Positions 6,669-64,000 of a DNA stretch of 64,000 bases are shown in pieces; position 1 is the first letter of the stretch, and every line of letters begins with the position of its first letter. Made by a program: the position numbers and the translations under genes. Source of the DNA: Candidatus Omnitrophota bacterium (lineage in GTDB: Bacteria; Omnitrophota; Omnitrophia; Omnitrophales; JACROU01). The notes under the pieces were generated by a model. The model ran no database searches. It worked only from the letters and a program-made list of their open reading frames with translations, and was not told where the DNA came from. Location: contig JACROU010000034.1 in NCBI GenBank assembly GCA_016214265.1, positions 5,878 through 69,877 of the forward strand. Reading direction: 5' to 3'.

Positions 6669-6781
6669 AAATTAATTGAACTTTCGATATGGATAACGGT
6701 TGTAGCATTTTCGACAGGACGTGAGGGGTACTTTAGCGGGTAGGGGCTTAGCATGCTAAACCCTACAAAAGAATCCGAGAA

Positions 6782-8365: not shown

Positions 8366-8369
8366 GGGT

Positions 8370-9254
8370 TCACTTTGCTGAAGCTCGGCTGGAAAAAGCG
8401 CCGGATGACAACCATTCGCGGAACAAAACACCTTTTTTAATTCGATCCATCAATTCACCGGAACTGATGCCGATTTTAAATCCTCCGGAAGCGGCATACA
8501 GCAATTCAAACTCACGGCTCATCCATTCCTCATCAATGACATCCGACGGCGTATCACGCGGGGTTCTCACCACATTAGACCGGGCAATCACATAAAATCG
8601 GCCGTATTGATCCCGAATTCCAATCTCAACCAAGAAACTTCTGTCCGGCTTGCCGACTTCCAAATACCAATTACCCGCATCAAAGTTAATATCAAGATCA
8701 AAAAAACTATTCGCGTTTGTTCCATCAAAATTACGATTCGTCACATCGTAAATGCGCAGTACCGCTTTGGGCCCGGTCAATTCACGATACCAACGAGTAA
8801 TCTGACTGCGCGTTGGCGCACTGAAATCCCAGTAGGTGTAGCACCAGTAAGGATCCCGAACCATCAGCACGATTTTTGTCACGCCATAACTGGACGGCAA
8901 ATCATGTTCATAACGGATTTCGTGAGAGGGCTCTCCTTCCACGTGCATGGCGCTTTCAGAATAAGGATGAACAAAACCTTGCTGGGCTTCAACGGAACGG
9001 GTTTTTAACCGGACACGAATGGCCAGCGGCGGCTCAATTCTTGACGTTTGTTTGCGGGTTGCCGGGGATTTTGACTTCGTTTTTAATTTCGACTTTGATT
9101 TTGGTGCGGATTTTTGTTTTGACTGCTTGACTTCTTCTTTTTTAATTTTCGAGATGAGCTCAGATTTATTCAGGGTGGAGGCGTTTGGGATGCGCAGTTT
9201 TTTAGCAATCGAAAGCAGTTTCTCTTTTACTAGCCGGTCCAGATTTTTAATCAT
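8370..9254 (-). CDS. DUF4912-domain protein with N-terminal Rho-N-like and Lys-rich linker
   Basis: 294 aa; N-terminal LSIAKKLRIPNASTLNKSELISKI (Rho_N-like), KSKSKLKTKSKS tract, Trp-rich C-terminal domain; DUF4912 genes commonly accompany GH57 genes. Confidence 0.5.
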   Translation of the reverse strand: MIKNLDRLVKEKLLSIAKKLRIPNASTLNKSELISKIKKEEVKQSKQKSAPKSKSKLKTKSKSPATRKQTSRIEPPLAIRVRLKTRSVEAQQGFVHPYSESAMHVEGEPSHEIRYEHDLPSSYGVTKIVLMVRDPYWCYTYWDFSAPTRSQITRWYRELTGPKAVLRIYDVTNRNFDGTNANSFFDLDINFDAGNWYLEVGKPDRSFLVEIGIRDQYGRFYVIARSNVVRTPRDTPSDVIDEEWMSREFELLYAASGGFKIGISSGELMDRIKKGVLFREWLSSGAFSSRASAK

Positions 9255-9334
9255 AGGCCCGTGTATCCCTCTGCTGTAACAGGTTTTCTAAAGGGCAAGG
9301 CAACAGAAAATTATACTAATTATCGGTTTACAAT

Positions 9335-9838
9335 TCAAGAAAGCTCAGCAATTTGTTTTGGCGTCATCAACCACTCTAAAGTGGCGCATTGATCGTATTT
9401 CAAATCATAGACGGTCAGTTTGGCAAGACCGGCCTTTTTCATATTGATGGAACCTGCCTTATTCCCCAACATCAGCATTGAAATAAGCCCGCTCAAATAA
9501 GGCTCGTGACCAACGATCAGAATGCTCTTTCGAGATTTGTAGTGCTTATCAATCTCAGAAACAAGCCTCTTGGGATCCCCCCCGATGGAAGCCAGGTTCT
9601 CGGTCACGGCAACTTTCTTTTTTAAATCAAAGATGTTGGCAACAATATCGGCCGTTTGCCGTGTTCGAAGATATGGACTGGTTAGAATCAAATCGAATGA
9701 AAGGTCCATCGCAAGCATCCCCTTCGCGACGTCTTTCATTTTCTGAATACCTTCATCCGTTAACGGACGCTGGCTATCGGTTCTGAATTTCGGACCGGGA
9801 TTCTCCGCAATGGCATGACGTAAAATGAAAAGTTCCAT
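9335..9838 (-). CDS. sixA: phosphohistidine phosphatase SixA (histidine phosphatase superfamily)
   Basis: MELFILRHAIAE... (RHG/RHA motif) and ...IVGHEP... motif; start set at internal Met. Confidence 0.7.
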   Translation of the reverse strand: MELFILRHAIAENPGPKFRTDSQRPLTDEGIQKMKDVAKGMLAMDLSFDLILTSPYLRTRQTADIVANIFDLKKKVAVTENLASIGGDPKRLVSEIDKHYKSRKSILIVGHEPYLSGLISMLMLGNKAGSINMKKAGLAKLTVYDLKYDQCATLEWLMTPKQIAELS

Positions 9839-9916
9839 AGTATGATATGATTTACCAAGGGTTAACACAAATCGAAGGCATCTGGTACCTTCTGTAAAAT
9901 ATCACGGATCGCTGTT

Positions 9917-11320
9917 ATGAAGCCACAAAAACATCTAGACCGGGAAATTGAGTGCAAATGGAAAGCTCTTTCCATTCAGGATTACGAAATCTTTCTTGCC
10001 GCGGCAAAAAAAATGGGGGGCCGGATTTCCAAGCCTCAACATCTTTTGATTTGCGACCTGTATCTTGATACTCCTGATAAGTTTTTCGGACATTCCCGAA
10101 CGAAATGCCGCATCCGGCTGACAAATAAAAAATCGGAGATCACATTAAAAAACTTTTCTATTTCGAAGCAGGGGCTGGTAACGCGCCACGAAAAAAGCAT
10201 CTCTATCCCCCATTTTGATTCTGAACATGCCGCGCTCGCATATTGTCGGAAGCATATTTTTCGAAATTTGCTGGGTCATATGCGAATAAAACCTATTTTC
10301 AAACTCACGAATCATCGATTGATTCGTAAGCTCACTTTACCGGACGGAACTTCCGCAGAATCCTGTTTTGACGACGTTGTTATTTCCCGCAGCACGAAAA
10401 AAGTTCATATGTTTGAAATCGAGCTGGAATATACGAAAGGCAATCTTGAAACTTTCAAGAATTTTGCCGCTAAATTAACACGCGTTTCAAAATTAAAACC
10501 TCAAACAAGATCGAAATTCGCCACCGCGATGTCACAGCTTTTCGGAGAAACCCACATCCCGTCGGACCCGAGGCAAATTGTGTATCCCTATCGCTACACA
10601 AAATATGATTCGCTTGGGTTTGTCGCAAAACAGATCGTTCGAGCCAACTTAAACAGAATGAAAACTAACGAAGCGGGTGTTCGACTTAATATTGAGGAAG
10701 AATCGCTTCACGACATGCGTGTTGCCGCAAGACGCATACGCGCTGCTCTTCGTCTGTTCAAAAAAGCTTTGCCATCGCAGGCAAGTAAAATAGCGTACAA
10801 GCTGCGCCGCTTCGGATACCTGCTTGGAAGAAAACGGGATCTGGATATTTTATCTGCTCATGCAAACCTTTCCTCCGAAATTGGGCGGGCTCATCAAGCC
10901 ATTCTTCGCGAATTGAATTCTCCACGTTATGCCAAGCTCATTCGTTCGATTGAGACCCTCGATAGCCGCTCTAAAAAGCTCGAGGCAAAAAAAATGATTC
11001 AAAAACGACTCGACAAAGTGCTAAGCGAAGCCCTGTCGATCACCCCAAAATCTTCCGACAAAGAACTTCATCGGCTACGCATTACGATCAAAAAACTCCG
11101 ATACGCCTGTGAATTTTTGGAATCGGTTTCACTACCAAAGACCAGAAAGCTCATAGATAGCTGCCGTCAGATACAAGATATTCTGGGTGCGCATCAAGAC
11201 GCAATTTTGGGATTAAAAACATTTCCTCGCAACAAATTATTCCGGAAGAAAAAGAAAGAGGCCCGATTGCAATTCGAAAAGGAATGGAAAGGTTTTTTAC
11301 TTCGGCTTTTGCGGTTTTAA
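9917..11320 (+). CDS. CYTH (triphosphate tunnel metalloenzyme) + CHAD domain protein
   Basis: 467 aa; N-terminal ExExK-containing CYTH-like region (EIECKWK...), C-terminal helical CHAD region with conserved His/Arg clusters (VAARRIRAALRLF; LHRLRITIKKLRYACEFL). One of only two plus-strand genes; divergent from ppk. Confidence 0.65.
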   Translation: MKPQKHLDREIECKWKALSIQDYEIFLAAAKKMGGRISKPQHLLICDLYLDTPDKFFGHSRTKCRIRLTNKKSEITLKNFSISKQGLVTRHEKSISIPHFDSEHAALAYCRKHIFRNLLGHMRIKPIFKLTNHRLIRKLTLPDGTSAESCFDDVVISRSTKKVHMFEIELEYTKGNLETFKNFAAKLTRVSKLKPQTRSKFATAMSQLFGETHIPSDPRQIVYPYRYTKYDSLGFVAKQIVRANLNRMKTNEAGVRLNIEEESLHDMRVAARRIRAALRLFKKALPSQASKIAYKLRRFGYLLGRKRDLDILSAHANLSSEIGRAHQAILRELNSPRYAKLIRSIETLDSRSKKLEAKKMIQKRLDKVLSEALSITPKSSDKELHRLRITIKKLRYACEFLESVSLPKTRKLIDSCRQIQDILGAHQDAILGLKTFPRNKLFRKKKKEARLQFEKEWKGFLLRLLRF

Positions 11321-17447: not shown

Positions 17448-18406
17448 ATAGTTACCAATCCTTGTTTCTTGCGGAAGTACATTCGAAATAAAACAGCCAC
17501 TAAGTTCAACAAAAACGTCAGTGAAATCAAGACCAGCGTAGTTCCATACTGAATCGGAAGTGTCTTTTCTGCGTCAACCGACTGCGTGGCCATGATGTAG
17601 ATGTGATATGAAAGATCCATAAATTGATCGAAGGGATTGACCATCGGGATAAAACCAAACAGATTCACAACCGGCAAATGCGGCAAAAAATAGGCGACAC
17701 CCGTAAACAGAATCGGCGCTGTCTCGCCTGCCCCGCGGCTCACCGCCAAAATCGCACCCGTTAAAATGCCGCCGCGCGCCTGAGGGATCACCACCCGCCA
17801 AATCGTCTGCCACTTCGTCGCCCCAAGCGCTAGTGAAGCCGCGCGATGACTTTGGGGAACGCTAATCAACGCTTCTTCCGTTGAAACAATAATCACGGGC
17901 AGCACCAGTATCGCCAGCGTCGCCGCCGCCCAAAGCATGCAAGGCTGGCCGAACAGAAGACCGGTTTTGAGCACTTGATCCAGATTCCGGCCAACAAAAA
18001 GAACAAAAAATCCGAGACCGAAAAGCCCAAAAACAATTGATGGAACTCCGGCCAGATTGTTAACCGCGGCTCGGATTAGGCGAAAAACAATTCCATCTCC
18101 GGCATACTCCACCAAATAAATCGCAGCGGCCACACCAAGCGGCAGCGCCATTACCACCATCAACACTGTTTTAGCAATAGCCCCAAAAATGCATGGGAAA
18201 ATTCCGCCTTGAGTCATGCCATCGGTGGGCGCCAGTAATAGAAATGACCCTGTAACGACCCCCGCACCATTTTTTACGATAATCCACAGAATCAAAAAGA
18301 TCGCTATCAGCGGAACGACAGCAAAAATACGCACCAGTCCGTTCATGAAGTTTTCGGAAAGGTTGTCGTGTTTTACGGTGAGATTGGAAACGATGGATTC
18401 TCTCAT
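17444..18406 (-). CDS. pstA: phosphate ABC transporter permease PstA
   Basis: 320 aa polytopic membrane protein with ABC permease EAA-like loop; operon position. Confidence 0.8.
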
Positions 18407-40494: not shown

Positions 40495-40573
40495 TGGGGT
40501 GAGCGACGGGAATTGAACCCGCAACCCCTAGATCCACAATCTAGTGCTCTGACCAGGTTGAGCTACGCTCACC
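40495..40573 (-). tRNA. tRNA-His (anticodon GTG) with encoded G-1 and 3' CCA
   Basis: Minus-strand: G-GTGAGCG TA GCTC AACCTGGTC AGAGC A CTAGA TTGTGGA TCTAG GGGTT GCGGG TTCAATT CCCGT CGCTCAC C CCA; cloverleaf folds, anticodon GTG, extra 5' G pairing with C73. Confidence 0.85.
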
Positions 40574-47676: not shown

Positions 47677-49305
47677 TTGAAGATACTCTTAATCAATCCT
47701 TTATTCCCCGATTCCCTGTGGTGCTTTCGAGGGATTCGCCATTTGACCCCCGCTCACGCCCATGCCCCCGTTGGTCTATGCACCGTTGCCGGACTCACCC
47801 CCCCTGATGTAGATGTAGAAATTCTCGATGAAAACGTAGAGCCGATGGATTTTGAGCGGGAATGCGACATTGTCGCAATGACGGCGTTTAACGTTCAGGT
47901 GCCACGGGCGCTAGAAATCGCTGCGGAATTTAGAAAACGCGGCAAAACCCTAGTTTTTGGCGGTCCGTACTCTTCCCTGATCGGCGAAAAGTTCCTCCCT
48001 TTTTATGATGTCTGTTTCAAGGGCGAAACGGAATACACCTGGCCTCAATTTATTGAAGAATACAAGCAGGGCAAGCACAAGCGGCTTTACGTTCAAGAAG
48101 GCAATATCGACATTTCAAAGTCCCCGACGCCCCGTTTTGACCTATTGAAAGCGGATCGCTACGCCTGTTTTTATCTACAAACCACCCGCGGGTGCCCCTT
48201 CAAATGTGAATTCTGCGATATCATCATCTCCGACGGACGCATCCCACGCGCCAAATCCGTCGAGCAAATCATCAAGGAAGCGGAAGTTTTGCGCAAAATC
48301 GGGGCAAACAACGTGACGTTTTCGGACGCCAACTTTATTGGAAATCCCGTTTCCGCAAAAAAAATCCTGGAAGCTCTTGTGGATTGGGGCAAACAGCACA
48401 ATTTCCCGATTCGCTGGAACTGTGAGCTGACAATCAACGTCGCCGAGCGCGACGATCTTCTGGAGCTGGCACGGCAGGCGAATTTCGGCGGCATGTTTTT
48501 CGGTATCGAAACTCCACGCAAATCAAGCCTTTCGGAAACAATGAAAACTGTGAACCTGAAACGCTCGCTCGTGGAAAGCGTACAAAAAGTTCAGTCTTAC
48601 AATATCGTCACCTGGTCCGGCATGATTGTGGGATTCGACCACGACGATAATCAAATTTTTCAGGAACAGCTCGATTTTCTTCAAGAAGCGGGCATCCCCT
48701 TCACCACAGCGGGTATTCTGGTAGCGATTCCGCTTACCCCACTGTATGACCGCCTGGAAAAAGAGGGCCGCCTGACGATGGATCTTTCGCGCATGATTGA
48801 GGATTCGGAAAAATGGCGCGGGCACGGTTCCGGTGATTTGAATTTTATCCCGAAGCTGATGTCGCAGGAGGAAATCAAAACCGGCTACAACTGGTTAATC
48901 CGTGCGATGTACTCGTATGAGGCAATGGCCGAACGCCTGATCAAGTGCTTCTCAAATTTCAGAAAATATGAACCGTTGCGCAAGCCGGACAAATTTAGTT
49001 GGATGGGATTTTTGAAAGGCATGAAGTTTATGGGGCAAATCTTTAAACACTTCGTGCTGACCCGGAATAAAATCCGGCGTCAATTTTTCTTCAAGGTGAT
49101 AAAAGCTTGGTGGGAGAACCGCAAGATTTGGAATCTGGAGCACATTATCAGCTGCCTCACCATTCACATTCACTTCCATTTTTATGTGAATGAGTCACAG
49201 GGCGATCCCGACTCGGCGGGATTTGTCTCGCCCTTCAATGGCATCGAGCCCATGCATCAACCGGTTTCCACTGAACCGACGCTTATTGCTTCGCGTACGG
49301 TTTGA
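47677..49305 (+). CDS. B12-binding-domain radical SAM protein (class B rSAM with DUF4070-like C-terminus), function unknown
   Basis: 542 aa; N-terminal cobalamin-binding Rossmann-like region, CxxxCxxC (GCPFKCEFCD) radical SAM motif. Confidence 0.75.
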   Translation: MKILLINPLFPDSLWCFRGIRHLTPAHAHAPVGLCTVAGLTPPDVDVEILDENVEPMDFERECDIVAMTAFNVQVPRALEIAAEFRKRGKTLVFGGPYSSLIGEKFLPFYDVCFKGETEYTWPQFIEEYKQGKHKRLYVQEGNIDISKSPTPRFDLLKADRYACFYLQTTRGCPFKCEFCDIIISDGRIPRAKSVEQIIKEAEVLRKIGANNVTFSDANFIGNPVSAKKILEALVDWGKQHNFPIRWNCELTINVAERDDLLELARQANFGGMFFGIETPRKSSLSETMKTVNLKRSLVESVQKVQSYNIVTWSGMIVGFDHDDNQIFQEQLDFLQEAGIPFTTAGILVAIPLTPLYDRLEKEGRLTMDLSRMIEDSEKWRGHGSGDLNFIPKLMSQEEIKTGYNWLIRAMYSYEAMAERLIKCFSNFRKYEPLRKPDKFSWMGFLKGMKFMGQIFKHFVLTRNKIRRQFFFKVIKAWWENRKIWNLEHIISCLTIHIHFHFYVNESQGDPDSAGFVSPFNGIEPMHQPVSTEPTLIASRTV

Positions 49306-49308
49306 TTG

Positions 49309-50859
49309 TCATTCCCGTTTTTTCCGGGATGACATTAAAATTTCTCTCGTCTGAATTTTGTAACCTTCCACGCCGTCCTGCAGATACGTAAAATCTTTGT
49401 AGGTTCCATCCACGAATTGCTCTTTTTCAAGTCCGCGCAGTTTTCCTTCCACCGCAACGATTGACTGAAAAAGATAAATGAAACGCGCCACTTCACGCAC
49501 AGTACGTTCAGGAATCACAATCGTGTAATTAAGAATGCCGCGTTCCGTCGCGTCACGCATAACACCTTCCATCGAAGCCTGTTGCACTTTCGATAGCGGC
49601 AGTCCCTCCATCGATTCAATTTCTTTTCCTTTAATAGCGCTTCCGTGAGGAATTACTGAATCGCGGCCGGCCGCTGTTTTTTGAGTGCCCACAAAAAGCA
49701 CCAGATCCCGCATCGCACCGGTTCCCTCTGCCGCGCCGTTCCAAATCGAATGCATTTTTTCGGAACCGACAATCGAAACAAAATCCATCCCTTGACCGAA
49801 TTTCTGAACCGACTCAGAATAAAGCTGCTGCGCTAAATCGCCCACTTGTTTTAAAAGCGGATCGTAAACAATCATAATCAAGAAAGTTTTTTTCTTTTTT
49901 ACTTCCGCGATTACCTGATTCATCGCCGACTGAAACACCACGTTTTTTTCGTTATCGGCCGGATTATCAAGCATATCAGAAATCGCGTCTTTAATTCCGC
50001 TCATCGCATCCATCACCCGCGAGCGCGGACTTTCGCCTAACTTCTCATTCGCGGTCACCGCTAACGCAAGAAGTCCGACGGGTGAAAAAGCCGAGAACCG
50101 CCCTCCCGTTCCATCGGGCACCGAAAGCATCGCGTAAAACGGATCGATTTTATTCAGCTGAAATAAAAGACTTTTTTCATTCAGACCCGTGGTCGCTACA
50201 AAAAATTGCCCCACCCCGCTTTTTAGATTCAACCGCTTTTGAAGAAAATCGCGGACAATCAAAAACGCGGCCAAAGTTTCCTGAGTACTTCCCGATTTCG
50301 AAATGACATTAAATTTTGTTTTTTGCAAAAGTCCGCGCTTATCCAAGCCTTCGAGTAAATCTGAAACTTTTTCCGGACTAAAATCATTTCCGATGAAATG
50401 AATTTCAGGTGCCCCGCCGCGAGCCTCACGCGGAAGAAAATTATGATGCGTGCTAAGTGTAGACCAGACAATGGCTTGCGTCGTTAAGTCTGAACCACCA
50501 ATTCCCAGATTAACCCACACTTCACACTTTTGGGAGCGCACTTTTTCAGCAACACAAATTACATCCTGAATATTTTTATTTTCGATCACGAGCTTGCCGT
50601 CTTTATCCAGCGGATCTTTGAGGGAAACAGATTCTGGAATTTCTAAATCAATCCACGGAAGTGTCCAGCCCCGAAGAACTTTTTTCAAATGCAAACGGCC
50701 TTTGCCATTAGAGGCGTTGGCAAACTCTTCGCGGAACTTAGTTTGTATTTGTTTTACCTTTCCGCTCAATTCCGTCTTGTCTTGAGGTGTAAACCGGGAA
50801 TTAGATTGGATTTTTTCTGATGAGAGATTTTCTTGTTTGATGTGAACTGAGGTACTCAA
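49309..50859 (-). CDS. pgi: glucose-6-phosphate isomerase family (SIS domains), divergent
   Basis: 516 aa; LGIGGSDL and ISKSGSTQETL motifs resembling PGI signatures; canonical GGRYS not seen, so assignment is tentative. Confidence 0.55.
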   Translation of the reverse strand: MSTSVHIKQENLSSEKIQSNSRFTPQDKTELSGKVKQIQTKFREEFANASNGKGRLHLKKVLRGWTLPWIDLEIPESVSLKDPLDKDGKLVIENKNIQDVICVAEKVRSQKCEVWVNLGIGGSDLTTQAIVWSTLSTHHNFLPREARGGAPEIHFIGNDFSPEKVSDLLEGLDKRGLLQKTKFNVISKSGSTQETLAAFLIVRDFLQKRLNLKSGVGQFFVATTGLNEKSLLFQLNKIDPFYAMLSVPDGTGGRFSAFSPVGLLALAVTANEKLGESPRSRVMDAMSGIKDAISDMLDNPADNEKNVVFQSAMNQVIAEVKKKKTFLIMIVYDPLLKQVGDLAQQLYSESVQKFGQGMDFVSIVGSEKMHSIWNGAAEGTGAMRDLVLFVGTQKTAAGRDSVIPHGSAIKGKEIESMEGLPLSKVQQASMEGVMRDATERGILNYTIVIPERTVREVARFIYLFQSIVAVEGKLRGLEKEQFVDGTYKDFTYLQDGVEGYKIQTREILMSSRKKRE

Positions 50860-50930: not shown

Positions 50931-52655
50931 TTAAAACTCGGTATTGAGAACGAAATGAATCCGGAAGGTGTCGCCATCGCTGGGGCCATCACCAATTGCC
51001 TCGGCAAGATAAATACGCGCGGTAAAATGATTAAACAAATCCACAAGAACACCACCACCAATACCCATCAGCCATTTTTCATCCTGTTCGCCAGGCAACC
51101 CCTTATTTAGCCAAGACTTGCCGATATCCGTAAATCCGACCAATTGAAATTGCTCGCGCGGTTTTTGTCCAAACAATTCAAAATTTTTGGGAATCAAGTA
51201 CGGTGGAAACCGCAATTCAAACGATCCGGTATATCCTTTATCCCCCAAATAATCTCCTTCCGGATAGCCACGCACTGTCTCCATGCCACCTTCACGAAAC
51301 TGCTCAGAAGAAACCAGCCGGTCCGGCGTAATTTGCATTGCTCCGCGCACCACAACAATCGAATCAAACAAAAAGCGGTTAAAACGCGCGCCGCCAAGAC
51401 TCCATGAGAAAAATTGCCCGCCGGTATCTGGTCGGCTGGCTTTATCATCTTTTTTTTCCAAGGCTCCCAAAAAACTGCTAAATCCCTGGCTGAATTGATT
51501 GGTCAACACTGTCCGGCCCCACTTATCGAATTGAGAAATATTCGGACCGAATCGCAGAACCCGAAGTTCATCATCCGAAACCTCATGCGCCAAAATCCGG
51601 CTTTTGATTGTTGAAATATCAAAACCGCTAGTGAAGTCCCCTTCCCATTTCGGAGTCATAAATAATGGAAACGTAAACGATGGTCCAAATGTTGTTGAGC
51701 GGCCTCGAATCTCAAATTGTTTGACCTTACCGATCAACGACAAGTTGGAATTGCTGAAGTTCATATTGAACGTGTCGCCGCGGGCATCAAGAGGAAATGA
51801 ATACGAAGCCGATTCACCGATAAAAGCATGATATTCTGAAATCACGAAACGGCTTATCATCCGGTCATTGAGCGTTAAAAAATCATTATGCGTCGCGATT
51901 ATATTCTGGCGCGTTGTTCCAGATGACTTAGTTCCAAGATTGTCCCACTGGTGGCCAGCGTGCATCGGAAACTTGTCTTTCACCGTGATAACAACATCGG
52001 TGGCTTCTTTTTCTTTGGCCGGCGCCAAAACAGCACGTGCGGTAATATCAGGATTTCGATTGATGCGGACCAAACTGTTTTCCAAATGCTGGACTTTAAA
52101 TACCTGTCCATGTTTTAAGTGAACCAAGCGCTTAACACCATACTTGGTAAAATGTTTTTCTCCCTGAATTTTAATATCGGCAACCTTACCTTCAAGAATT
52201 CTGATCTCGACTTTGCCTTCCATAATTTTTTGCGGAGGCAGATATGCCTGACTGGTCACGTATCCCTTTGAGCGGTACAAAGCAGTGATTTCTTTGGAAC
52301 ATTGGGCCAGTTCGGGAAGAAGCACTTTCCGATTCTCAAATTTGGCAGTGATTTTTTTGATTTCATTTGAAGGAATAACCGTGTTACCGGAAAAACCAAT
52401 TTCTTTAATAAAAACTTCCTTTTTGGGAAACTCCTGCCCCTCTTGAATAGCGATGGGTTCTTCGATTTCTGGACGTTTTTGGACTTCGGGTTTCTTGAGT
52501 TCACTGGATTTCGCAAATTCGCGGGATTGAGATCCCATCAATTCAACCTGCCGGCTCACATTGGAACCTGGAGGCGGCTGCTGCTGAGCAAAAGCAGTCG
52601 GAAGATTAACCAGCAAACTGCATATGAATAAGAAGATAAAATAATTAGGCTTCAC
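50931..52655 (-). CDS. ShlB/FhaC/HecB-type two-partner-secretion outer-membrane transporter (TpsB) with POTRA domains
   Basis: 574 aa; signal peptide, POTRA-like (VEIRILEGKVADIKIQGEKHF), C-terminal beta-barrel ending ...NTEF. Confidence 0.65.
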   Translation of the reverse strand: MKPNYFIFLFICSLLVNLPTAFAQQQPPPGSNVSRQVELMGSQSREFAKSSELKKPEVQKRPEIEEPIAIQEGQEFPKKEVFIKEIGFSGNTVIPSNEIKKITAKFENRKVLLPELAQCSKEITALYRSKGYVTSQAYLPPQKIMEGKVEIRILEGKVADIKIQGEKHFTKYGVKRLVHLKHGQVFKVQHLENSLVRINRNPDITARAVLAPAKEKEATDVVITVKDKFPMHAGHQWDNLGTKSSGTTRQNIIATHNDFLTLNDRMISRFVISEYHAFIGESASYSFPLDARGDTFNMNFSNSNLSLIGKVKQFEIRGRSTTFGPSFTFPLFMTPKWEGDFTSGFDISTIKSRILAHEVSDDELRVLRFGPNISQFDKWGRTVLTNQFSQGFSSFLGALEKKDDKASRPDTGGQFFSWSLGGARFNRFLFDSIVVVRGAMQITPDRLVSSEQFREGGMETVRGYPEGDYLGDKGYTGSFELRFPPYLIPKNFELFGQKPREQFQLVGFTDIGKSWLNKGLPGEQDEKWLMGIGGGVLVDLFNHFTARIYLAEAIGDGPSDGDTFRIHFVLNTEF

Positions 52656-52735
52656 AAATCCTCCAAAGATATCGGTTTAGTACTTATTATGTATCGGCAG
52701 GACATAAAACCAATTAACAGAAGAAGGTGCCACGG

Positions 52736-55204
52736 CTATTTCTTCTTACCCACTTTTTTCCTGTGAATATAGTCGTAATTAGGAAGTTCCAAATAGAACA
52801 TCTGGAAGTTTTCGTCCACGTAAAACATCCTTCGTTCCAACGAATCGTTGATAAGCTCCGACGCGGCCACCGCAATTTGCGCTTGAATCGTTTCCGCCAC
52901 AATAAGCAAGTTTACTCCATTCCAGTACACGGCACCGTTGTAAGTTCCGAATAAAGTCAATGTGTTAACCGGCCATACCGTGCCTGTCATGTTTACAGAC
53001 ACACCTCCTGCCGCACCCGGAGCAATGACGGTCAATGTGCCTCCGGTGACATTCGCTTCCACCGCATTCAATGCGGTGCCAATTGTGCCCGCCAGTCCCG
53101 ATGCGGTTAATGTGGAATTAGCGCTGGAGGTAAAATTCACCAGCGGACCGTTACCATCCAAAATCGATCCGCCGCCCGTTGTCGAAACAGTAAAACTGCC
53201 GCCCGTCGCCGTTATCGCTCCGGCAGTTATGTCACCGCCGGCCGTGAAATTAATATTGCCGGCTGCTGTTGACAGCGATGCCGCGCATCCATCGCATTCA
53301 TTCAACGCAATATTTCCAACTCCTGTTACCGTCGCTGTTATCGTATCAAAACATACCTCAATCGGACCCGGATTCCCGATACTGCCAGCCGCCGTAAAGT
53401 TTCCGATTCCGCCCGCCAAATCCACACCCAGATCAGTTCCGATTTCCTCAATTTTGCCCGCGGAATTAATCGTAACCGTATCGCCCGCAGCCGCCACATT
53501 GTCTACGTTCACATCGCCGCTTGTCGTTGTTGTAAGAATAACATTGCGTCCGACACCACCTGCCGTCACGGTAGTAAGATTCAGATCCCCGCCAACTGAT
53601 TCCAAAGTAATCGCTCCATTCACCGTGGTCGCGCTGGCCACACCCAATCCGCCGGAAGTATCCTTCACGTTGATCCCGCCCGTTCCCGTCACTTTGAACG
53701 TGGCGGAGTTCATGCTGAAATCCACTTCCAAAGTGCCCGCCTCACCGATACCATTGACCGATGTCAAATCTGCATCGGTGGCCACCAAATCAGCGGCCGC
53801 ATCCGCACCACTTTCCTCAATCGCTCCGGCCGAGTCGAGCGTAATCGTATCGCCGACAGCGCTCACCACATCCACCGACATATCACCGCCCGAGACCACA
53901 TTAACGGAGCCGGAAAATGTCGTCACGTTAGCCAGCGTAATCGCGTCGAATTCTTCAACATTGATGATCCCGGCCGCCGTCACATTGGCCGTCAAAGTAG
54001 TCACATTGGTTTCAAGGGCATCAACCGCAGTCCCAACACCGCCAAGAGAAGTAATCGTAAGGTTATTCGCCGTCACATTCGTAAGCGCCGCCGCGTCGCC
54101 CAGCACCGAACCATTTGTCGCGGTAAGCGTCGCATCATTCGGCGTATTCACCGCACCCGCAGCGCCAAATGTGACGTTCCCGTCCGTTGTCAGTGTGATT
54201 GAAGAATTTCCAGTGCCCGTAATTTCACCATCCACCTGAATCGCCCCGCCCGCCATCGGAGAGCGAATCGTCACGGGATCGCTGAACGAAATTGCGTTCA
54301 CGGTCACCAAACCGGTTCCATCCGCGCGGCCAATTATGATATTGCTGAATCCGTCAACCAACGCTGTGGGTATCGGGATTTGCATGGTTCCGGCCGCACC
54401 CGCGATGCCAATGCTGGTTCCAGCCGCCGCTGGTTGAAGTGTGATCGAACCTGTGCCGCTCACCGATCCCGCGCCACCCGAAAAACTGATTGAATCCGCG
54501 GTCAATGTCAGCGCATTCACACCCGCCGCGAGAATATTGTTAAACGTCATCGTGGAATTTCCGGAATTGAATTCCACGGAATCCGTAGGCGTTACCGGCC
54601 CGCTAAAAGTCATCGTACCAACGGTGGTTGTGTTGTAGGCTGGCGCGTAGGTGCCGGAAATCAGATTCAAACTTCCATTCACCACGACGGGACCGGCAGG
54701 CACATAAGTCTCACCGGCATTATTAATTCTGAGATTGTAGTAAGTCGGATTGTTTACTCGCGTATTCACGGAGGGGACGCTCCCTGAATATTCCACAGTG
54801 GATGTCTGGGGATCAAAGACACCATTGATCACCAACGGGGCCGCGTCAAAAATAACTTGTTTTGGACTCGTGGAGTCGCTCGTCGTCCCCTCACCTAATT
54901 GGCCGTACGCGTTATACCCCCACGCGTACACTGCCGCATCTCCCGTCGTCATGGCTATCGAATGGGCGCCGCCACCGGCGATCTTCGAAATATTTTGTAA
55001 AAATCCGGTGCCACCAACGCCCAACACTTCTATCGGTATCAAGGAATTGTTGGTTGTGCCGTCGCCTATCTGGCCGAAATTATTGATTCCCCAAGCGTAG
55101 ACACGCGAGCCATCACTTTTCAGCTCGACCGTGTGAACATACCCGGTCTTGATAAATGATATATTCTTCAGGAATCCCACACCGCCGACGCCCAGAAACC
55201 GTTA
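52736..55204 (-). CDS. C-terminal portion of giant repeat exoprotein (last blades of second RCC1 propeller + beta-helix-like repeats + basic C-terminus), separated from upstream ORF by a frameshift
   Basis: ORF frame continues upstream of its GTG to 55204 reading ...[25 protein letters not shown]..., matching earlier repeat [26 protein letters not shown] in the giant ORF. Confidence 0.6.
55143..55194. repeat. exact 52-bp direct repeat (copy 1) of 55748-55799 within RCC1 array
   Basis: ccggtcttgataaatgatatattcttcaggaatcccacaccgccgacgccca occurs identically at both positions, 605 bp apart. Confidence 0.9.
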
Positions 55205-58200
55205 TTGGAGAGGGCCACGCTGTGATAGCTGCCTGCATCGATTTGGGAAATATTCAGCAGAATTCCAAAGCCGCTAATGTCGACAACTTCTACTGGCACC
55301 GAGGAATCATTCATCGTTCCGTCACCCAACTGACCCGACGCGTTATCTCCCCACGCCAACACGGTTCCATCAGTCTTCAGAGCGACCGTATGATAAAACC
55401 CGGCAGCAACTTGAACTATGTCCTGCAGATTTCCAATTCCACCCATTCCCAAAACTTCGACCGGGACCAAGGCATCATTCATCGTGCCGTCACCTAACTG
55501 ACCTTTATTATTTCCTCCCCATGCGTAAACCTTCGGGCCTTCACCACTCTTCAGAGCCACCGTATGGAAAAGTCCCGTATCAATCTGAGAAATATTTTGC
55601 AAATAATCCACGCCGCCGACGCCCAATACCTCCACCGGCGTTGACGAATTGCCCGTCGCACCGTTATTGCCCAACTGGCCGTGATCATTGCTTCCCCACG
55701 CGTAAACGCGCGAGCCATCGCTTTTCAGCGCGACCGTGTGATCATATCCGGTCTTGATAAATGATATATTCTTCAGGAATCCCACACCGCCGACGCCCAA
55801 CACCTCGACCGGCACAGAAGAATTATTCGTCGTCCCATCACCCAACTGACCCTGCGCATTGTATCCCCACGCATAAACCAAACCATCCATCGTAAGTGCA
55901 ACAGTAAAATAACCACCGCCGGCAATCTGACTGATGTTACTGAGAGTCCCGACGGCCGTTGTGTTGAGATTCCATGTTCCGCTTCCTGCTTCAAGCCGAT
56001 GATTGAGCTCTACCGTCAGCTGACCTGACACGGTAACCTGATTTGCCAGGATTTTTGAAGTCACTTCCGCGGTCGCGCCGTCGCCGAAGGTGAGATGATT
56101 GAACGTCCAGTCAGTCGCACCGCCAAAATTGCCGGTGCCCGCGAGCGAAAATGTTCCGCCGATAAGATTAATCGTACCGTCACCCGTCACATCGCCGCCC
56201 TGAACTGCAATATTCTTTGTGCCAATCAATGATCCGGCTGTTACCTGCAAGTCTCCTGCCATCGTGAGCGCGTCCGTTGGCTCGAGCGTGCCTGATCCGG
56301 AGTACGTTAAATTATTGAAGTTTGATCCGCCGCTAGTGATCGTTTGCGCGGACGTACCATCAAAAGTTACGGTGCCGGATCCAGCCGTGAACGTGCCGGA
56401 ATTTGTCCAGTTGCCGGCTACCTTGATATTCTGGCCACCGCTAGCCAGATCACCGGCAGTAATTATCACATTGCCATTCACATCGAGGGCATCAATCAGC
56501 ACAGCGCTTCCAGCTGATTTGTTCACGGTGAAATTATTAAAACTCGTTCCACTCGAAGTAATATTTTGTATGCCAGCTCCATCGAATGTCACCGTTCCAG
56601 TGTTCGCGTTAAAGGTGGCGCCCGTATTCGTCCAGTTACCTCCGACATTAATTGAATTGGATCCGGCAACAAGAACCGAAGCGCTGGTCACCTCGCCGCC
56701 CAAGGTATGGAACGTGGAAGGATTTGATTGGTTATTGTATTCGGTCTGAATCCATTCGGCTGATCGGGCTGTCGAGGAGAAGCGAACTTCGTCGATTCTG
56801 CCAGCAACATAATAAGGGATATTGTTATAGGTATGCCCACCGATGCGTAAAGGATTCGACGAATCAGTCCAGACCGCCGTAGTGTCTGAAGCAACGTTCG
56901 CCGTGTTAACATAAATGGTCGTTGTGCCCGCCGATGTCACAACAACTGCGTTATACCATTGTCCCGAAGAGATAATTCCCCCGGCACTCACTATTTCATT
57001 GATCCCTGCCCTGCCCACGCCTACCCTGCCATCCCCGTAATAATATATGGCCCAATTCTGGTCATTATTGACCTGATTCACGAGCCCGCCGGCATCAGCC
57101 GCAGTCGCTGGCATCGTGTCGACATAAAACCATACGCTGATCGTACCGTCTGACGTAGTGAGGTTCCAGCTATTGCTGTCAGGAATACTGATATAATCGT
57201 TTATTCCGCCAAAGCTTCCCGCCCCATCAATCTGTCCTGCTGTCGCCGTCGGACCGAGTATCAATCCATTGTTTGCGTTAGCCGTCGAGTCAGTCGTGCT
57301 TAAAACCGTTCCGTCTGCCAGATGCCACACGCCGGCATAGTTCGAATCCCACACCGCCGACGCGTTCTGAGTATCCGCAGTAGCGCTCGCGCCGTAATCA
57401 AGGTAGAGCGTCGTATCCCGCACACTCGACAGATCCGCCTTCACCCAAGCGATGAGTTTGCCCGTCGTATCATCGTAATATTCGACTTGATACGGCATCA
57501 CGGCGCCAAGTGCATCCGTAAACTTGATCGTATAATTAGAACCGTTTTGCACTTTGCCGATGAGGCTTGCATCTGTGACGCTCACGAGAACCGGGAAGCC
57601 CGTCAAGTCTGCCGGAACTTTCGTGCGATCAATGATGATGGCGCGTCGGGATGAATAGCCACTCTGCCACTGAATATTTAGGTTTCCGCGAACATTGAAG
57701 GCATCCTGCAACGTATAAGTTCCCGACAAAATCGTAACGTTGTTGAAACTGGCGCCGCCGGAAGTAATTGTGTGACTGCCAACACCGTCAAACGTTGCTG
57801 TGCTCGTACCCGGTGTAAACGTTCCGCCTGAAATCGTGAAGTTGCCTCGATAATATTGCGTGCCGGAAGCAGCGGTAAGACTGCCGCCCGTCATCGTCAA
57901 GTCACCATTCAATGTCATGTCGAAAGTAGCCATGTCGAAATTGCTGGTCGAAATCGGCAGATCGCCGGTGAGAACCACATTTCCGGTCAGCGAAACATCG
58001 CTGGCAAAGTTGATGGTGCGACCCGCTCCGAGTCCGGTATTAATGTCGCCGGCCAAATTCACAATACCGACACCGTTCTGAACAAAATTTCCATCCAAAG
58101 TAATATCGCCCGCCGCCGAGGTTATGAAGAACCCGCCGTTGGTAACCGTCATGACATTGCTCGCACCGCCCGTCGCCGTCACGGAATTCGAAATATCAAT

Positions 58201-61200
58201 AGTTCCGGCGGCAATCAAAGTCACGTTACCCCCCGCAGTAAACGGCGCGTTAACGGTGATCGATCCTGCCTTCGAGTTCAAACTTAAATTTCGCGCGACC
58301 GTAAATGTGAAATCGCTTGCATTGATCCACAAACTATCGTTGGTCTCGATTGTCAAATCGCGGCCCGAATTAAAATCGTTATAGTCAAAATAAATACTTC
58401 CAGCACCGAAAAGCGTCGAATCGGCCTTAAGAACAATGTCGCCGCCGCCTGTCGTTGTGAAGTACGGAGAATAACCGTTCGTCCACCCCAAATCCAAATC
58501 CCCGGCCGTCAGGCTGATTCCGCCTGCACCGTCGGTATCCACATTGTCATCAAAACCGGCATAACCTGTAGCCGTCATCACAAAACTCGCCGCCGAGATC
58601 CGCCAATCGGCCCAGAAGTCCCGGGCGCTGGCAATGTTGATATCACCCAGCCGCACATTACCGCCGACAGTGTTAGCGAAATAAATATTTCCCGTGCCCG
58701 CGGTCAGAGTAAAGCCCTCCACGCCGGGATTCGTTCCGTCAATCGTGTTGTAGAAGTTGATATTAGCGCCAGGAGAAGCTCCAGAATTTGTGGAATCAAG
58801 AAGGAATCCGCTCGCGGCGAAAATTACCGGCCCGTAGAAATTCATTTGGCCAACGCTGTAAATATTCGCGTCCACTGAAAAAGTCCCCCCACTTGAGTTC
58901 AGGGATCCATTGATAACCAGATTAGAAGCGTTGGTGAAATAGTCGATACTGCCATCAACGGCATTGATACTTAAATTGCAATAATCGTTAGCGCCAAAAT
59001 CTTTGATGATAAAACTGCTCGCCGTCGCGTCGCCATCGCCAACGTAGTTCCAAGTTCCCTGAGTCGTGTCATTGCCCGAAGTCAGAGTAACGTTTTCATT
59101 TCCTTTTAATTGTATCGTGGCCGGATTGGTTAGCGTTCCCGTAACGGAAAAATTTTGACCATTAAGATCGAGAGTGCCGGCAGAGTTGGTAATGTTGTTA
59201 GAAATCACAAGCGCATCTTGAAGCTGCAGCGTGCCAGAACCCGAATGTGTCATATCGTAAAAACTCGATCCACCACTCGTAAGCATCTGAGTATTGACAC
59301 TATCAAAGGTAACCATACCCACGCCTGCCGTAAATGTACCCGTACTCAGCCAGTCGCCGGCGACATTCATATTCACCGAATGACCCGTGAGATTTCCGGT
59401 AATAGAAACATTATTGAAGGAAGTGACGTTCGCACCAAGAACAGAGCCAGCGCCGTTGAAAGTTACCGTGCGAGTACCCGGAATAAATGCTGCCGAATTC
59501 GTCCAATTACCACCAACAGTGATATCACTTACATTTGAATCAAGAGTTCCCGTCGTAATATCAATATGCCTCAACGCAGTGATTGCTCCTCCGAGAGTGA
59601 ATGTCGATGAGGGGTTATTGAACTTAAGATCATAATAAGTTGTACTTGTAACATTACTGGTAATTCCGGAATATTCAAAAAGCGATGTCTGACAATCGAA
59701 AGTGCCCAAGATGACAAAAGACGTAAGAGTTGAAATGACCCCGACAGGTGTCAGCTGCGGAGACATCAGAGTGCCATCTCCTAATTGCCCAAATGCGTTA
59801 TATCCCCACGTCCAGACTGTTCCGTCAGTTTTTAGCGCCACCGTGTGAGCGCTACCCGCTGCTATCCGGGTAACAACTCCCGTAGTCTGACTTTGAACTG
59901 GAACTGATGAATCCGTCGTCGTCACATCCCCTAATTGCCCATATCCGTTATATCCCCACGCCCACACCGTCCCATCGCTCTTTAACGCTACCGTATGATA
60001 ATCGCCCGCCGTTATCCGGCTAACACCCGTGATCTGACTTTGAACAGGAATCGATGAACTATTTGTCGTACCATCTCCTAATTCACCATATCCACCATAT
60101 CCCCAAGCCCAGACTGTCCCGTCCGTCTTTAACGCCACCGTGTGTATCGTATCAGCCGCAATCCCACTCACGACGCCTGTGATTTGACTTTGAACAGGAA
60201 CCGACGAATTATTTGTTGTCCCATTACCCAATTGACCATACCAATTCCCCCCCCATGCCCACACCGTTCCGTCATTCTTTAACGCCACCGTGTGAGAAGA
60301 GCCCGCCGCGATTTCGCTCATAATTCCCGATGTTTGACTTTGAACAGGAACCGATGAATCGGTTGTCGTGCCATCCCCCAATTGGCCGAACCTGTTAAGT
60401 CCCCACGCCCAGACTGTCCCGTCATTCTTTAACGCCACCGTATGATAATAACCCGCCGTGATTTCGCTCATGATTCCCGTTGTTTGACTTTGAACGGGTA
60501 CGGACGAATCCGTTGTCGTCCCATCGCCTAACTGACCATACACGTTATACCCCCAAGCCCACACCGTTCCATCCGTCTTCAACGCTACCGTATGAGAATT
60601 ACCCGCCGCTATCCGGGTGACAATTCCCGTAATTTGACTTTGAACGGGTATGGATGAATTTGTTGTCGTGCCGTCGCCTAATTGACCGTATGAATTAAGT
60701 CCCCACGCCCACACCGTTCCGTCCGTCTTCAACGCTACCGTGTGATAATCGCCCGCCGCGATTTGGGTAACCCCGGTAAAATAACTATTGCCGGCCCACG
60801 CAAGATTCCAGTGACTTGTTCCGGCCTGAAGAGTATGAGTTGCAGATATTTTAAGCTGTCCCGTCATCGTTATTTGGTTCGTTCCCGCTTTCGACGTAGT
60901 CCCGACATCTGATCCATCTCCAAATGTAAGATTGTTGAATGTCCAATCCGTCGCGCCGCCGAAATTACCCGTGCCGACAAGTACAAAATTTCCGCCGGTA
61001 AGATTGATCGCGCCGTCACCTGACACATTTCCACCATTGACGGTAATATCACCGGTTCCCGTTAACGTCTTCGTGGCCCACACGAATAACCCTTGATCTA
61101 CCGTCAGACTGCCGCTTGTCACCGAATAAAGCATATCCGAATCAACCAACGCGCCCTTGGCCGTATTCAAATTCGCAATCGCGATCGGACCCGCAGTTTC

Positions 61201-64000
61201 GTGACGCACAATCAGCGTGCTTCCATATATATCTAGTCCCGTCACACTCGCCGGATTGACAGGAGCGATCGTAACCGTGCTTCCTTTCACCGCATTCCCC
61301 GAGATATACACATCCACATTCCCGCCATTCAACAAATCCACACTGCTGAACGTGTAAGCCCCTCCGGTAGTCACTGCCTGCTCAACAATTAATCGCCCAT
61401 CCACCGCCAGTCGAATCGTCACGCCATCCCCAATCAGGCTCACCCCGAGATCGGTATAAACATTTCCTGATACCGCCGCACCGAAATACCAGTTCGTATT
61501 TCCTAATCCATCCACACTTCCCGTCTCCGCCGCATTGATTATGGTCGCGTTCGTATTGTGCGAATCCTGGACATTGAGATAAGCAATGGTGCGCGTGCCT
61601 TGCGGATCAACATTCCACTGCGTACCGGGCGCGCTCGAGCGGAGCGACAACAGCTGGCCCGCCGCACCTTGTAACGTCATCGTCCCCGTAATCGTCTGCG
61701 TCGAACCCGCCGCGAAGGTGAGTACATCCGCCGCCGCGACCGTCTTCGTTAAATTGTAAAATGTTGTGTCGCCGGAAATCGTCTGATTAGTTCCGTTCAA
61801 CACTACCGTTCCGGTTCCCGCTATAAATGTCGCAGCGTTTGTAAAATTTCCTGTGAGAGTTAATGTGCCGCTCGTCATCGAAAAAGTACCGGCGCTCAGA
61901 TTGAGATTGCCATTCACTGTCACATTATAAGTTGATTCATCAAAATTATTCGAAATCGGAACATAACCGGTAAGAGTCGTATTGCCAAGAACGGTAACGG
62001 GTCCACCAAAAGTGATCGTTCCGCCGCCGGTTGATGTGATGAGTCCGGCGATTTCAAGATCCGCCGCCACGGGCGCCGCCGCGCCTTTTTGGACAGAGAT
62101 ATTTCTGAGCGCCAGCAATTGATCGTTCGCACCGTCGGATTCAATAATCACGCTGTCAACAGCCGGTGCCGTCAGCGAAAAATTGGAGCCGGTCAAAGTA
62201 ATGTCCCGTCCCGCATCTACCTTGCCCGATACTCTCACCCGCACGCCGCCAACTCCGTCCAAATTCGTATCCGCAGTCAGAATAATATCTGAAACCGCAC
62301 CCGCCGCCTGAATCAAAGCAAGCACATCAATATCGTCGGTTGAAGTTATGGTTATTGTCGTTCCCGAAGTGATTGTCCCATTAATCACAACACTGCCCAT
62401 TCCTCCATTCAAAACAATGTTACCGGCCCCCACCGTGAGAGCCGCATTAATTGTCACCCCGGAACCGATCGTGAGCGTTCCGCCTGATCCCGGACTTGAA
62501 TTAATCACATCATTAACTGTGATCGTAGTGCCAGACACAACAGTCACATCACCACCATTCGTCGTAATTCCAACAACTCCGTCCACGGTTCCTATGGCAA
62601 CGGCATTAGCATCTGTGTAACTGATGGCATTGCCCGCGCCAGTCACATTGGCAGCAAAAGTCGCAACATTGTTGCCTGCGTCTGTGAGCGTCACCGCACC
62701 CACTGACTGGACATCCAGACTACTTACCGCAAGTGAAGCAGATTGCGTCACCGTTCCGCCTGTGCGCAGTGAAAGTGTACTGTACGTTGCGGGTGCTGTT
62801 ATCGCCGAAGAAATAGTGATACTTCCAGAGTTTGCCGTGGAACCAATTCGTAAAGTACCCGCTGTAATTTGATCGAGTTCGGTATCTGTAAGGCCAAGCT
62901 TACCCACCGTATTCGTTCCCAAATCAATCTGGCGCGAACTGGTATTTTGAACTAACGTCACAATTCCCGAACCCACATCCACCGAGCCGGAGAATGTCAT
63001 GTCATCTGCTGTAAACGTCAGCGAGCCAGCCGAGATCGTTGAAGAGGCTGTTACATTATTTGCATTGTCGATCGTAAAAATTCCAAGCCGCGTTGTTCCG
63101 CCCACTACCGCGGAAAATGTAATGTCTCCGGAAGTTCCGGATCTCAACGTCAGATTCTCCGTCCCCGCCACCGATCCATTCAATGTTCCCTGAAAACTGA
63201 TATTAGCTCCCCCCGCCGATCCGCCGCCGTTCGTCGTGTCCAAGAGAACACCCACGTCCAAAATCACGCTGTCACTAAACGTAATCGCATTTCCCGCAGT
63301 CACAATATCCGCCGCCAAATGCGCCGTCGCTCCGGAACCGTCTAAATATATGGAAGCGTTCCCCAAACCGGTGATCTGACCGTTCACCTGAATCGAACCT
63401 CCCAAAGCCGGCGAGCGAATCGTCACGGGATCTGTAAACGTCACGGCATTAACCGTAATTAATCCGGATCCGGCCACACGACCGATCGTGATACCGCTAA
63501 AGCCATCTCCGAGAGCTGCAATATCCGTCGACGATAACGCAAGCGTTCCTGCCCCTCCGGCAATTCCGATTGCGGCCGCATCAGATGCCGGCTGCAACGT
63601 AAGTGCCGCACTGCCTGTCACTGAATTAGCGCCACCCAGAAAATCAATTCCATTTGCGGAAAGTATTAAATTATTGACACCTGCAGAAAGTGTTCCCGCG
63701 AATATCAATGAGTTGCTTCCCGCATTCAAAGTAACCGGATTATTAATCGCAACAGTGCCATCAGCGCGGAAATTATCTGCCATAGTCCATGTTCCGCTGG
63801 CGCCATTGAAGGAAACATTATTGAAGTTGCTGCCGCCTGAAGTAATACTGTTTGTTCCCGCCGTCGTAAAGTTCACCGTTCCGCCGCTGAAAGCCCCTCC
63901 AACTTTTGTATCCCAATTGCCGCTGACAGTAATGGTGTTGGCTGCCATAGTGAATGTTCCGCGAATATCAATATCCCCAACATTCACATTTCCACCAGGT
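55168..64000 (-). CDS. giant repeat exoprotein (partial, N-terminus beyond window; >2,900 aa here): beta-helix-like GxxT/NxT repeats, seven-bladed RCC1 propeller, DUF2341-like + LamG/ConA-like module, second RCC1 propeller (interrupted)
   Basis: Long low-complexity G/T/S/N/A-rich passes typical of beta-helical adhesins; RCC1 blades [27 protein letters not shown] x7; LamG-like WFYVD...RIDEVRFS; no stop from 63987 to window edge. Confidence 0.7.
55748..55799. repeat. exact 52-bp direct repeat (copy 2)
   Basis: Identical to 55143-55194. Confidence 0.9.
56700..57660 (-). other. DUF2341-like + LamG/concanavalin-A-like lectin module inside giant protein
   Basis: ...[26 protein letters not shown]... 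followed by ...[11 protein letters not shown]...[15 protein letters not shown]...[22 protein letters not shown]... ; domain names from memory. Confidence 0.45.
59745..60790 (-). repeat. RCC1 propeller A: seven tandem ~150-bp blade repeats inside giant gene
   Basis: Seven consecutive ...[42 protein letters not shown]... units; visible as near-identical ~150-nt periodicity on plus strand. Confidence 0.6.

Follow-up and report, generated by a model that had tools for sequence, protein, structure and literature searches.

The window analysed here, a stretch of 64,000 nucleotides (nt) from a Candidatus Omnitrophota bacterium (GenBank assembly GCA_016214265.1, contig JACROU010000034.1, positions 5,878 to 69,877 of the forward strand), ends inside a giant gene, and the gene of a 574-amino-acid (aa) outer-membrane barrel protein follows that gene on the same strand. 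Do these two genes form a type Vb, or two-partner secretion (TPS), system, with the barrel as the TpsB transporter and the giant protein as its TpsA cargo? An earlier reading made from the letters of the window (the sequence-only reading) had proposed such a module, exporting a beta-helical fibre that carries two RCC1 propellers and a DUF2341-LamG lectin-like module. Our analysis favours a type Vb secretion system with an oversized modular cargo, to which we assign a probability of about 0.68.

Identity of the transporter and its linkage to the giant gene

Comparison of the 574-aa protein with Pfam showed that it matches ShlB with 79.6 bits (cut-off 22.7) at residues 219-536, covering positions 3-309 of the 311 positions of the profile, and that it has two periplasmic POTRA domains, the first of them of the ShlB type: POTRA_2 (75.6 bits, cut-off 24) at residues 83-156 and POTRA at residues 157-226 (43.9 bits, also over its cut-off). 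Reading of the translation by eye gave a signal peptide at about residues 1-23 (…NLPTAFA ahead of QQQ; in full MKPNYFIFLFICSLLVNLPTAFA, then QQQ), an FTDIG motif and the L6 loop motif VRGY, which lies within …GGMETVRGYPEG…. A sequence search of solved structures returned CdiB as the top match (6wim, E=1.1e-19) and FhaC among the further ones (4qky, E=4.9e-7, and also 3njt); the POTRA structure of TpsB4 (2mhj) matched residues 79-156, and the L6 segment …METVRGY… aligned with …GGESSVRGF… of CdiB. The NCBI record of the protein (MBI4970895.1) is named 'ShlB/FhaC/HecB family hemolysin secretion/activation protein', and of its 244 homologues at E<=1e-20, all 120 among the matches listed carry the ShlB family.

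The same comparisons bear on the possibility that the barrel is a general Omp85 insertase of the BamA/TamA kind and lies beside the giant gene by coincidence. Two NCBIfam BamA models did match the POTRA region, but one reached 31.6 bits where its cut-off is 297 and the other 28.1 bits where it is 1050, and the barrel has two POTRA domains in 574 aa where BamA has five and TamA three. Together with the ShlB and POTRA_2 scores, with CdiB and FhaC as the closest solved relatives and with the family assignment of the homologues, this effectively refutes an insertase on the evidence of profile comparison. The sequence-only reading had called the protein a ShlB/FhaC-type transporter and had named a hidden Markov model (HMM) classification as BamA/TamA as the result that would speak against it; the HMMs placed the barrel in the FhaC/ShlB class, and for this reason we identify it, from its sequence, as a TpsB protein.

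The barrel gene is preceded, 5 nt ahead of its GTG, by a GGAGG ribosome-binding site, and its position directly downstream of the giant gene on the same strand, with a gap of 80 nt, was as first described. A promoter/terminator scan found no terminator-like hairpin between the two genes, which are therefore probably co-transcribed. The shared strand, the short gap, the ribosome-binding site and the lack of a terminator-like site make up the adjacency looked for in a tpsA/tpsB operon.

Architecture of the fibre

The giant gene is read in two frames in the window (see below). We therefore worked on a hybrid protein in which the two open reading frames (ORFs) are patched with the 141-nt version of their junction found in L001, an independent Logan assembly of run SRR12113407; 3,781 residues of this hybrid lie within the window. 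The composition of the patched protein is rich in glycine (14.4%), threonine (13.3%) and asparagine (8.0%) and very poor in cysteine (0.1%). Internal comparison showed that it is built from duplicated super-modules and that many shaft units of the 'FxNLT' type recur between them. The most widely conserved shaft stretch, which we call module A, is present twice (Table 1), and its copies are 50-54% identical by internal BLAST.

AlphaFold2 (AF2) modelling of window positions 62620-63822 (module A and the part that follows it, on an alignment of 18 sequences) gave a mean predicted local distance difference test (pLDDT) score of 82.4, with most of the first 290 residues above 90 and folded into short periodic strands. 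A Foldseek search with this shaft model gave no significant match, and its weak matches were all solenoids. From the periodic strands and these solenoid-only matches we predict that the shaft is a right-handed parallel beta-helix, most like those of TpsA proteins. The beta-helix-like, G/T/N-rich passes seen by the sequence-only reading thus agree with both the composition and the AF2 prediction.

Three predicted globular parts lie along this shaft. In the upstream ORF, Pfam RCC1 reached 422.7 bits in 11 stretches and WD40_RLD reached 599.8 bits. The first propeller is visible in the DNA as a 150-nt tandem array (59774-60759), and the second, together with about 100 aa ahead of it, is a duplicate of the propeller 1 cassette (51-56% identical by internal BLAST). 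The DUF2341-LamG module proposed earlier was borne out by profile scores above the Pfam gathering scores (74.2 bits for Laminin_G_3 and 31.1 bits for DUF2341 as the best values), and the LamG part matched an S-layer domain protein in the Protein Data Bank by sequence (4qvs, E=2.6e-6); an AF2 model of the module, made from six sequences, was too poor for use (pLDDT 49.7).

The C-terminal beta-helix is 45-50% identical to the corresponding region of the fibre genes that lie ahead of the two closest barrels, on the Omnitrophota-type contigs L013 and L014 (see below), and is thus conserved. Over the last 621 residues, Pfam gave no family at E<=0.05. A type Va autotransporter was considered and rejected on this absence and on the alignment of the C-terminus with the beta-helix of the relatives. 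The window fibre (52736-52900) stops about 190 residues before its counterparts at L013:9127-9820 and L014:5828-6392, which share a non-helix C-terminal tail (…SYT…GL.F.DIVK..NY.KFG…NNLI…).

The break in propeller 2

The sequence-only reading had spoken of one giant gene; in the window this proved to be split into two ORFs, 52736-55180(-) and 55168-63999(-), whose frames differ and which have 13 nt in common. In the downstream ORF, the two blades that close propeller 2 are followed by copy 2 of module A, by the C-terminal beta-helix and by a short basic tail; its only Pfam matches are to RCC1 families. The upstream ORF corresponds to the NCBI protein P0193 (3,727 aa, encoded by this contig, whose length is 73,472 nt), which was 100% identical to a query of 2,331 aa, and which NCBI annotates as a DUF2341 domain-containing protein.

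A look-up of the barrel returned the 20.7-kb L001 contig alone, which ends inside the range of the window. Comparison of the window with L001 placed the break in blade 5 of propeller 2. The flanks of the two assemblies are 99.83-99.88% identical, and the junction segment between them is 59 nt long in the window against 141 nt in L001, a net difference of 82 nt. L001 has one continuous frame here and a propeller 2 with seven regular blades; the intact form exists in nature. Of the two complete RCC1 propellers claimed for this protein, propeller 1 is thus complete in the window, while propeller 2 is broken there at blade 5 and complete in L001. Programmed frameshifting at 55168-55194 was rejected, since the intact allele differs by an 82-nt change in length and not by a slippery site.

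The junction segment and the stretch that follows it are about 90% identical, over 131 nt, to the junction of blades 1 and 2 that lies 600 nt upstream, and the identity of the window to L001 falls to 95.8% just past the junction. The junction thus looks like either a repeat-induced chimera in the metagenome-assembled genome (MAG) or a defective variant allele, and a repeat-induced assembly chimera at this position is probable.

These data also bear on whether the system is decaying or non-functional here, with a cargo gene that is genuinely frameshifted, perhaps repeatedly, and no longer yields one fibre. Such a reading would fit the frameshift with its net loss of 82 nt, the absence of the C-terminal tail of about 190 aa found in the L013 and L014 fibres, and an in-frame stop that must lie upstream of the start of P0193, because NCBI annotates a complete coding sequence. 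Yet the independent assembly of a population 99.85% identical to this one has the frame intact, the junction resembles a repeat-induced chimera in its match to the neighbouring blade junction and its local drop of identity, and both halves are still open over long stretches (3,727 and 814 codons) with no other stop in them, which an old pseudogene would not be expected to show. We consider decay improbable.

Table 1. Position of the features of the locus in the window
Feature	Coordinates	Strand	Description
TpsB-type outer-membrane transporter	50931..52655	-	574 aa, GTG start
Spacer, giant-gene stop to barrel start	52656..52735	-	80 nt
Giant gene, downstream ORF	52736..55180	-	814 aa
C-terminal beta-helix (predicted)	52739..53728	-	tblastn against L013 and L014; alignment
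Module A, copy 2	54122..54679	-	hybrid residues 3135-3320
RCC1 propeller 2	54851..55932	-	seven blades in the intact allele, broken in the window
Frameshift or chimeric junction	55136..55194	-	propeller 2 blade 5; blastn and alignment against L001
Giant gene, upstream ORF	55168..64000	-	open at the window edge; no stop ahead of the first GTG
Laminin_G_3 (ConA-like lectin/glucanase fold)	56746..57207	-	Pfam, 71.2-74.2 bits
DUF2341 domain	57349..57528	-	Pfam, 28.7-31.1 bits, cut-off 23.4
RCC1 propeller 1	59704..60777	-	seven 50-aa blades; Pfam RCC1, RCC1_2, WD40_RLD
Module A, copy 1	63274..63819	-	…LTLQP…GFSxITIGR…; hybrid residues 61-242
PGI-like gene	49309-50859	-	516 aa
B12-binding radical SAM gene	47677-49305	+	DUF4070
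tRNA-His (GTG)	40495-40572	-	
Antisense ORF in the giant gene	52962-54239	+	425 aa

Relatives of the barrel and of the fibre

Comparison of the locus with those of the barrel's relatives showed that the pairing of a giant gene with a TpsB gene recurs. The third-best barrel relative (P0076, 51% identical) is encoded on a 2.17-Mb contig (Ga0315338_1000003 of JGI 3300032138; L013, also L009) directly after a giant gene at nt 3-33902, whose product has at least 11,299 aa. The genes that follow the barrel are those of the window: PGI-like, dksA-type zinc finger, lspA, lgt, pseudouridine synthase, ribBA, ribH, nusB, ribD and ribE. Similarity between the L013 fibre and the window fibre is limited to module A, a few other short segments and about 250-300 residues at the C-terminus (about 50% identity). 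The L013 giant protein has no RCC1 or LamG and matches only SBBP, NosD and Beta_helix; the heads are therefore specific to the lineage, whereas the barrel pairing is kept. The L013 gene would be even longer if its contig is a circular chromosome broken inside the gene.

On L014 (barrel P0075, 54% identical), a fibre gene is followed by two tandem barrels and then by a gene of 7,137 aa with a TPS domain at its N-terminus. This contig belongs to Omnitrophota OFTM55 (JAJDCD010000016.1); its tandem ShlB-type barrels, of 572 aa each, lie at 6671-10165, and the TPS start of the 7,137-aa gene lies about 7.6 kb past them (17802-18389). Among barrels whose cargo can be read at its N-terminus, P0077 (L015, 48% identical) is the closest; it is followed by a 4,420-aa protein with an N-terminal Pfam TPS domain (114 bits). 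In another Omnitrophota locus (L003, 32% barrel identity) the barrel precedes a 2,227-aa TpsA (TPS, 92 bits) that shares module A with the window fibre, and in Verrucomicrobiales (L004, 22% identity) the TpsA gene precedes the barrel. For every barrel relative whose cargo N-terminus is visible, a TPS domain was found in that cargo.

The order of cargo and then transporter had been described as the less common one. This did not hold among the loci compared, where the cargo came first in the window, L013, L014 and L004 and the transporter came first in L003, L015 and L017. Cargo-first order is also that of hmw1A-hmw1B and fhaB…fhaC.

The domain mix of the fibre had likewise been called unusual for TPS cargo. 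As far as RCC1 is concerned it is not unique, since on a Logan contig of ERR14964774 (L017, 29% barrel identity) a ShlB gene is followed by the gene of P0272, a complete TpsA of 3,445 aa with a TPS domain (NPNGI motif), PATR and RCC1 propellers. The propeller cassette of P0272, with the part that precedes it, is 46-48% identical to that of the window.

Module A was retrieved in 57 proteins. An N-terminal TPS domain is present in 39 of them; the other 18 include 7 that are clearly truncated at the N-terminus and about 7 planctomycete proteins with an N-terminus of the LExR type. The cargo of the related barrels, the TPS domains of the module A proteins and P0272 give good indirect support for two-partner secretion.

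Two further proteins were observed in these comparisons. For a 3,890-aa protein of a Burkholderiales MAG (L002:4667-16339), hmmscan of the whole protein returned DUF5649 only, while its first 600 aa alone gave Pfam TPS with 94.9 bits; because the TPS domain was seen only in the segment, whole-protein scans and precomputed domain columns can miss domains of giant proteins. In a Xenococcaceae cyanobacterium MAG (L007:3293-5692), a GT2 glycosyltransferase (residues 5-164) and a TPS domain (337-552) share one open frame, which is a fusion or two genes read through.

The N-terminus and the route of export

The TPS domain lies outside the window if it is present, and the sequence-only reading had proposed to look for it, and for a signal peptide, upstream of position 64000. 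P0193 adds 784 residues beyond that position and brings the visible part of the giant protein to at least 4,565 aa; the extension could thus be made, but neither feature is in it. No Pfam family was found in the 784 added residues, and the start of P0193, 'MATGFTISSLGSFTMTSG…' (MATGFTISSL…), sits amid shaft-like repeats. Exact look-up of the 814-aa ORF and of P0193 returned no record, and scans of genomes and metagenomes with a query of the N-terminal 400 aa gave only relatives at 62% identity or less.

Several results weigh against a type Vb system. No TPS domain was found in the 4,565 visible residues by Pfam on segments or by a custom TPS HMM built from six TpsA N-termini, nor in the six frames of the window by the custom HMM, and there is no signal peptide at the annotated start of P0193. 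The coding sequence of P0193 is not flagged as partial by NCBI, so that the frame is closed upstream in the MAG with no recognisable export signal. The L013 giant gene begins at nt 3; as it is cut at its 5' end and not collinear with the window fibre, no orthologue shows the N-terminus. Module A is present in proteins with no TPS domain, such as the planctomycete proteins of the LExR type, and the window copy of the cargo gene is frameshifted. We nonetheless think, from the sequence context, that the real 5' end of the giant gene lies further upstream, behind another break, because a protein made entirely of extracellular-type parts with no export signal is implausible and because one break can already be demonstrated in this gene.

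These results can also be explained if the giant protein is not a TpsA and leaves the cell by another route (type II/IV-like machinery or an unknown signal), while the barrel serves an unlinked TPS cargo or recognises the fibre with no canonical TPS domain. The absence of a TPS domain and a signal peptide from the visible residues and the annotated start would fit this, as would the occurrence of module A and other shaft repeats in proteins that lack TPS. The giant proteins published for this phylum point the same way. West-Roberts et al. 2023 (10.1101/2023.11.21.568195) described Omnitrophota giants of an Archaeovorin type and a Dockerin type, in which transmembrane regions are numerous, SecA DEAD-like domains occur and type II/IV-like secretion genes lie nearby; TPS, ShlB and FhaC are unmentioned in that paper, and RCC1 is mentioned only for Clostridia. 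Against another route stand the pairing of giant gene and barrel, which is kept within the synteny of L013 and recurs in L014, and the TPS domains of the relatives whose cargo N-terminus can be seen. Pfam found no SecA (SecA_DEAD), dockerin, peptidase or other secretion-related family in the visible part, and a set of exported-type domains with no signal ahead of it suggests that the true start differs from the annotated one. We consider export by another route unlikely.

Neighbouring genes and other features

The neighbours downstream of the giant gene are the TpsB gene and housekeeping genes (PGI-like, dksA-type zinc finger, lspA, lgt, rluD and the rib operon), and no HMW1C-type glycosyltransferase or other accessory gene was found at the locus. 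The 516-aa protein encoded next to the barrel is distantly PGI-like: it matched Pfam PGI with 41 bits, was far under the cut-off of every NCBIfam PGI model, and is listed as hypothetical by NCBI. Its gene also lies directly after the barrel in L013. Between the PGI-like and dksA-type genes, on the opposite strand, lies a B12-binding radical SAM gene (DUF4070), which is present in L001 and absent from the otherwise syntenic L013. ARAGORN, and Rfam at gathering thresholds, returned a tRNA-His gene and no other RNA gene in the window. Antisense ORFs in the giant gene, such as the one listed in Table 1, were treated as putative by-products of its biased composition.

Discussion

The neighbourhood of a TpsB protein and a TpsA-like shaft leads us to infer that the giant protein is exported by the barrel and displayed as a binding fibre. 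In the mechanism that we propose, the TpsB protein, with its signal peptide, two POTRA domains and Omp85-type barrel, would reside in the outer membrane, and the giant gene ahead of its own would encode its cargo, which has 4,565 aa or more and is probably much longer. The cargo would cross the inner membrane via Sec, a putative N-terminal TPS domain would dock on the POTRA domains, and the unfolded chain would be threaded through the barrel. Outside the cell it would fold into a long right-handed beta-helical shaft, along which the two seven-bladed RCC1 propellers and the DUF2341-LamG module would form globular heads. The most likely ligands of these heads would be proteins or glycans carried by another cell or surface, which would suit the attached or predatory lifestyle proposed for Omnitrophota.

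Comparison with FhaB/FhaC of Bordetella, HMW1A/HMW1B of Haemophilus and EtpA/EtpB of enterotoxigenic Escherichia coli showed the same FhaC-type transporter with two POTRA domains and VRGY, whose gene adjoins, on the same strand, that of a very large G/T/N-rich beta-helical protein. The locus differs from these systems in that a TPS domain was not seen, in that two RCC1 propellers and a DUF2341-LamG module are set in the shaft, in a cargo that exceeds the roughly 3,600 aa of FhaB (4,565 aa or more, and 11,299 aa or more in L013), in the uncultured Omnitrophota host and in the absence of an HMW1C-type glycosyltransferase or accessory gene. The locus of P0272 is like that of the window in its cargo of beta-helix and RCC1, and differs in that the transporter comes first, the cargo has a clear TPS domain and PATR, and there is no DUF2341 or LamG; it is unannotated, and we found no paper describing it.

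The CdiA/CdiB systems share with this locus a large filamentous cargo and, in CdiB, the closest solved relative of the barrel. Their loci have the order cdiB-cdiA-cdiI, whereas in the window the cargo precedes the transporter and ends in a beta-helix and a short basic tail. The stretch after the window cargo showed no toxin or immunity module, no VENN motif and no small cdiI-like ORF.

The giants of West-Roberts et al. come from the same phylum, and they share with this locus very long genes, beta-helical stretches, predicted extracellular binding domains and a proposed role in cell attachment. The visible part of the window protein differs in having no match to SecA, dockerin or peptidase families and in being paired with a TpsB. 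A 2026 preprint on complete Omnitrophota genomes likewise leaves TPS and ShlB unmentioned. In the literature we found no paper tying Omnitrophota to TPS or to filamentous haemagglutinin, and none describing a TpsA with RCC1 or any other propeller; at the level of single genes, the annotations (ShlB family; DUF2341 domain-containing) are already in NCBI.

A wider proposal, which we put forward tentatively and hold at rather less than even odds, is that these fibres form a third, undescribed class of Omnitrophota giant proteins. With lengths of about 4,500 to more than 11,000 residues, these beta-helical fibres would lie far above any characterised TPS substrate, and each would have a dedicated FhaC-type export protein. 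Their shaft and C-terminal modules would be conserved and their heads swapped by lineage (RCC1 and LamG here, other domains in L013), and they might serve as grip organelles of ultra-small bacteria on a host or prey. In a stronger variant of this proposal, the cargo would truly have no canonical TPS domain, and its TpsB would recognise it by a novel mechanism.

The practical lesson of this locus is that MAG assemblies break such repeat-rich genes and that whole-protein domain scans miss the domains of giant proteins. If the adjacent TpsB does export the fibre, type Vb substrates would be known over a wider range of sizes, and a mechanistic question would arise as to how chains of 4,500 to more than 11,000 residues, with propellers that must fold outside the cell, are handled by a 16-stranded barrel. 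Omnitrophota would then have an additional secretion route for their giant genes, beyond the SecA-like and type II-like machineries on which attention has centred, and the RCC1 propellers and the LamG domain would be candidate heads for the recognition of host or prey in a possibly predatory lineage.

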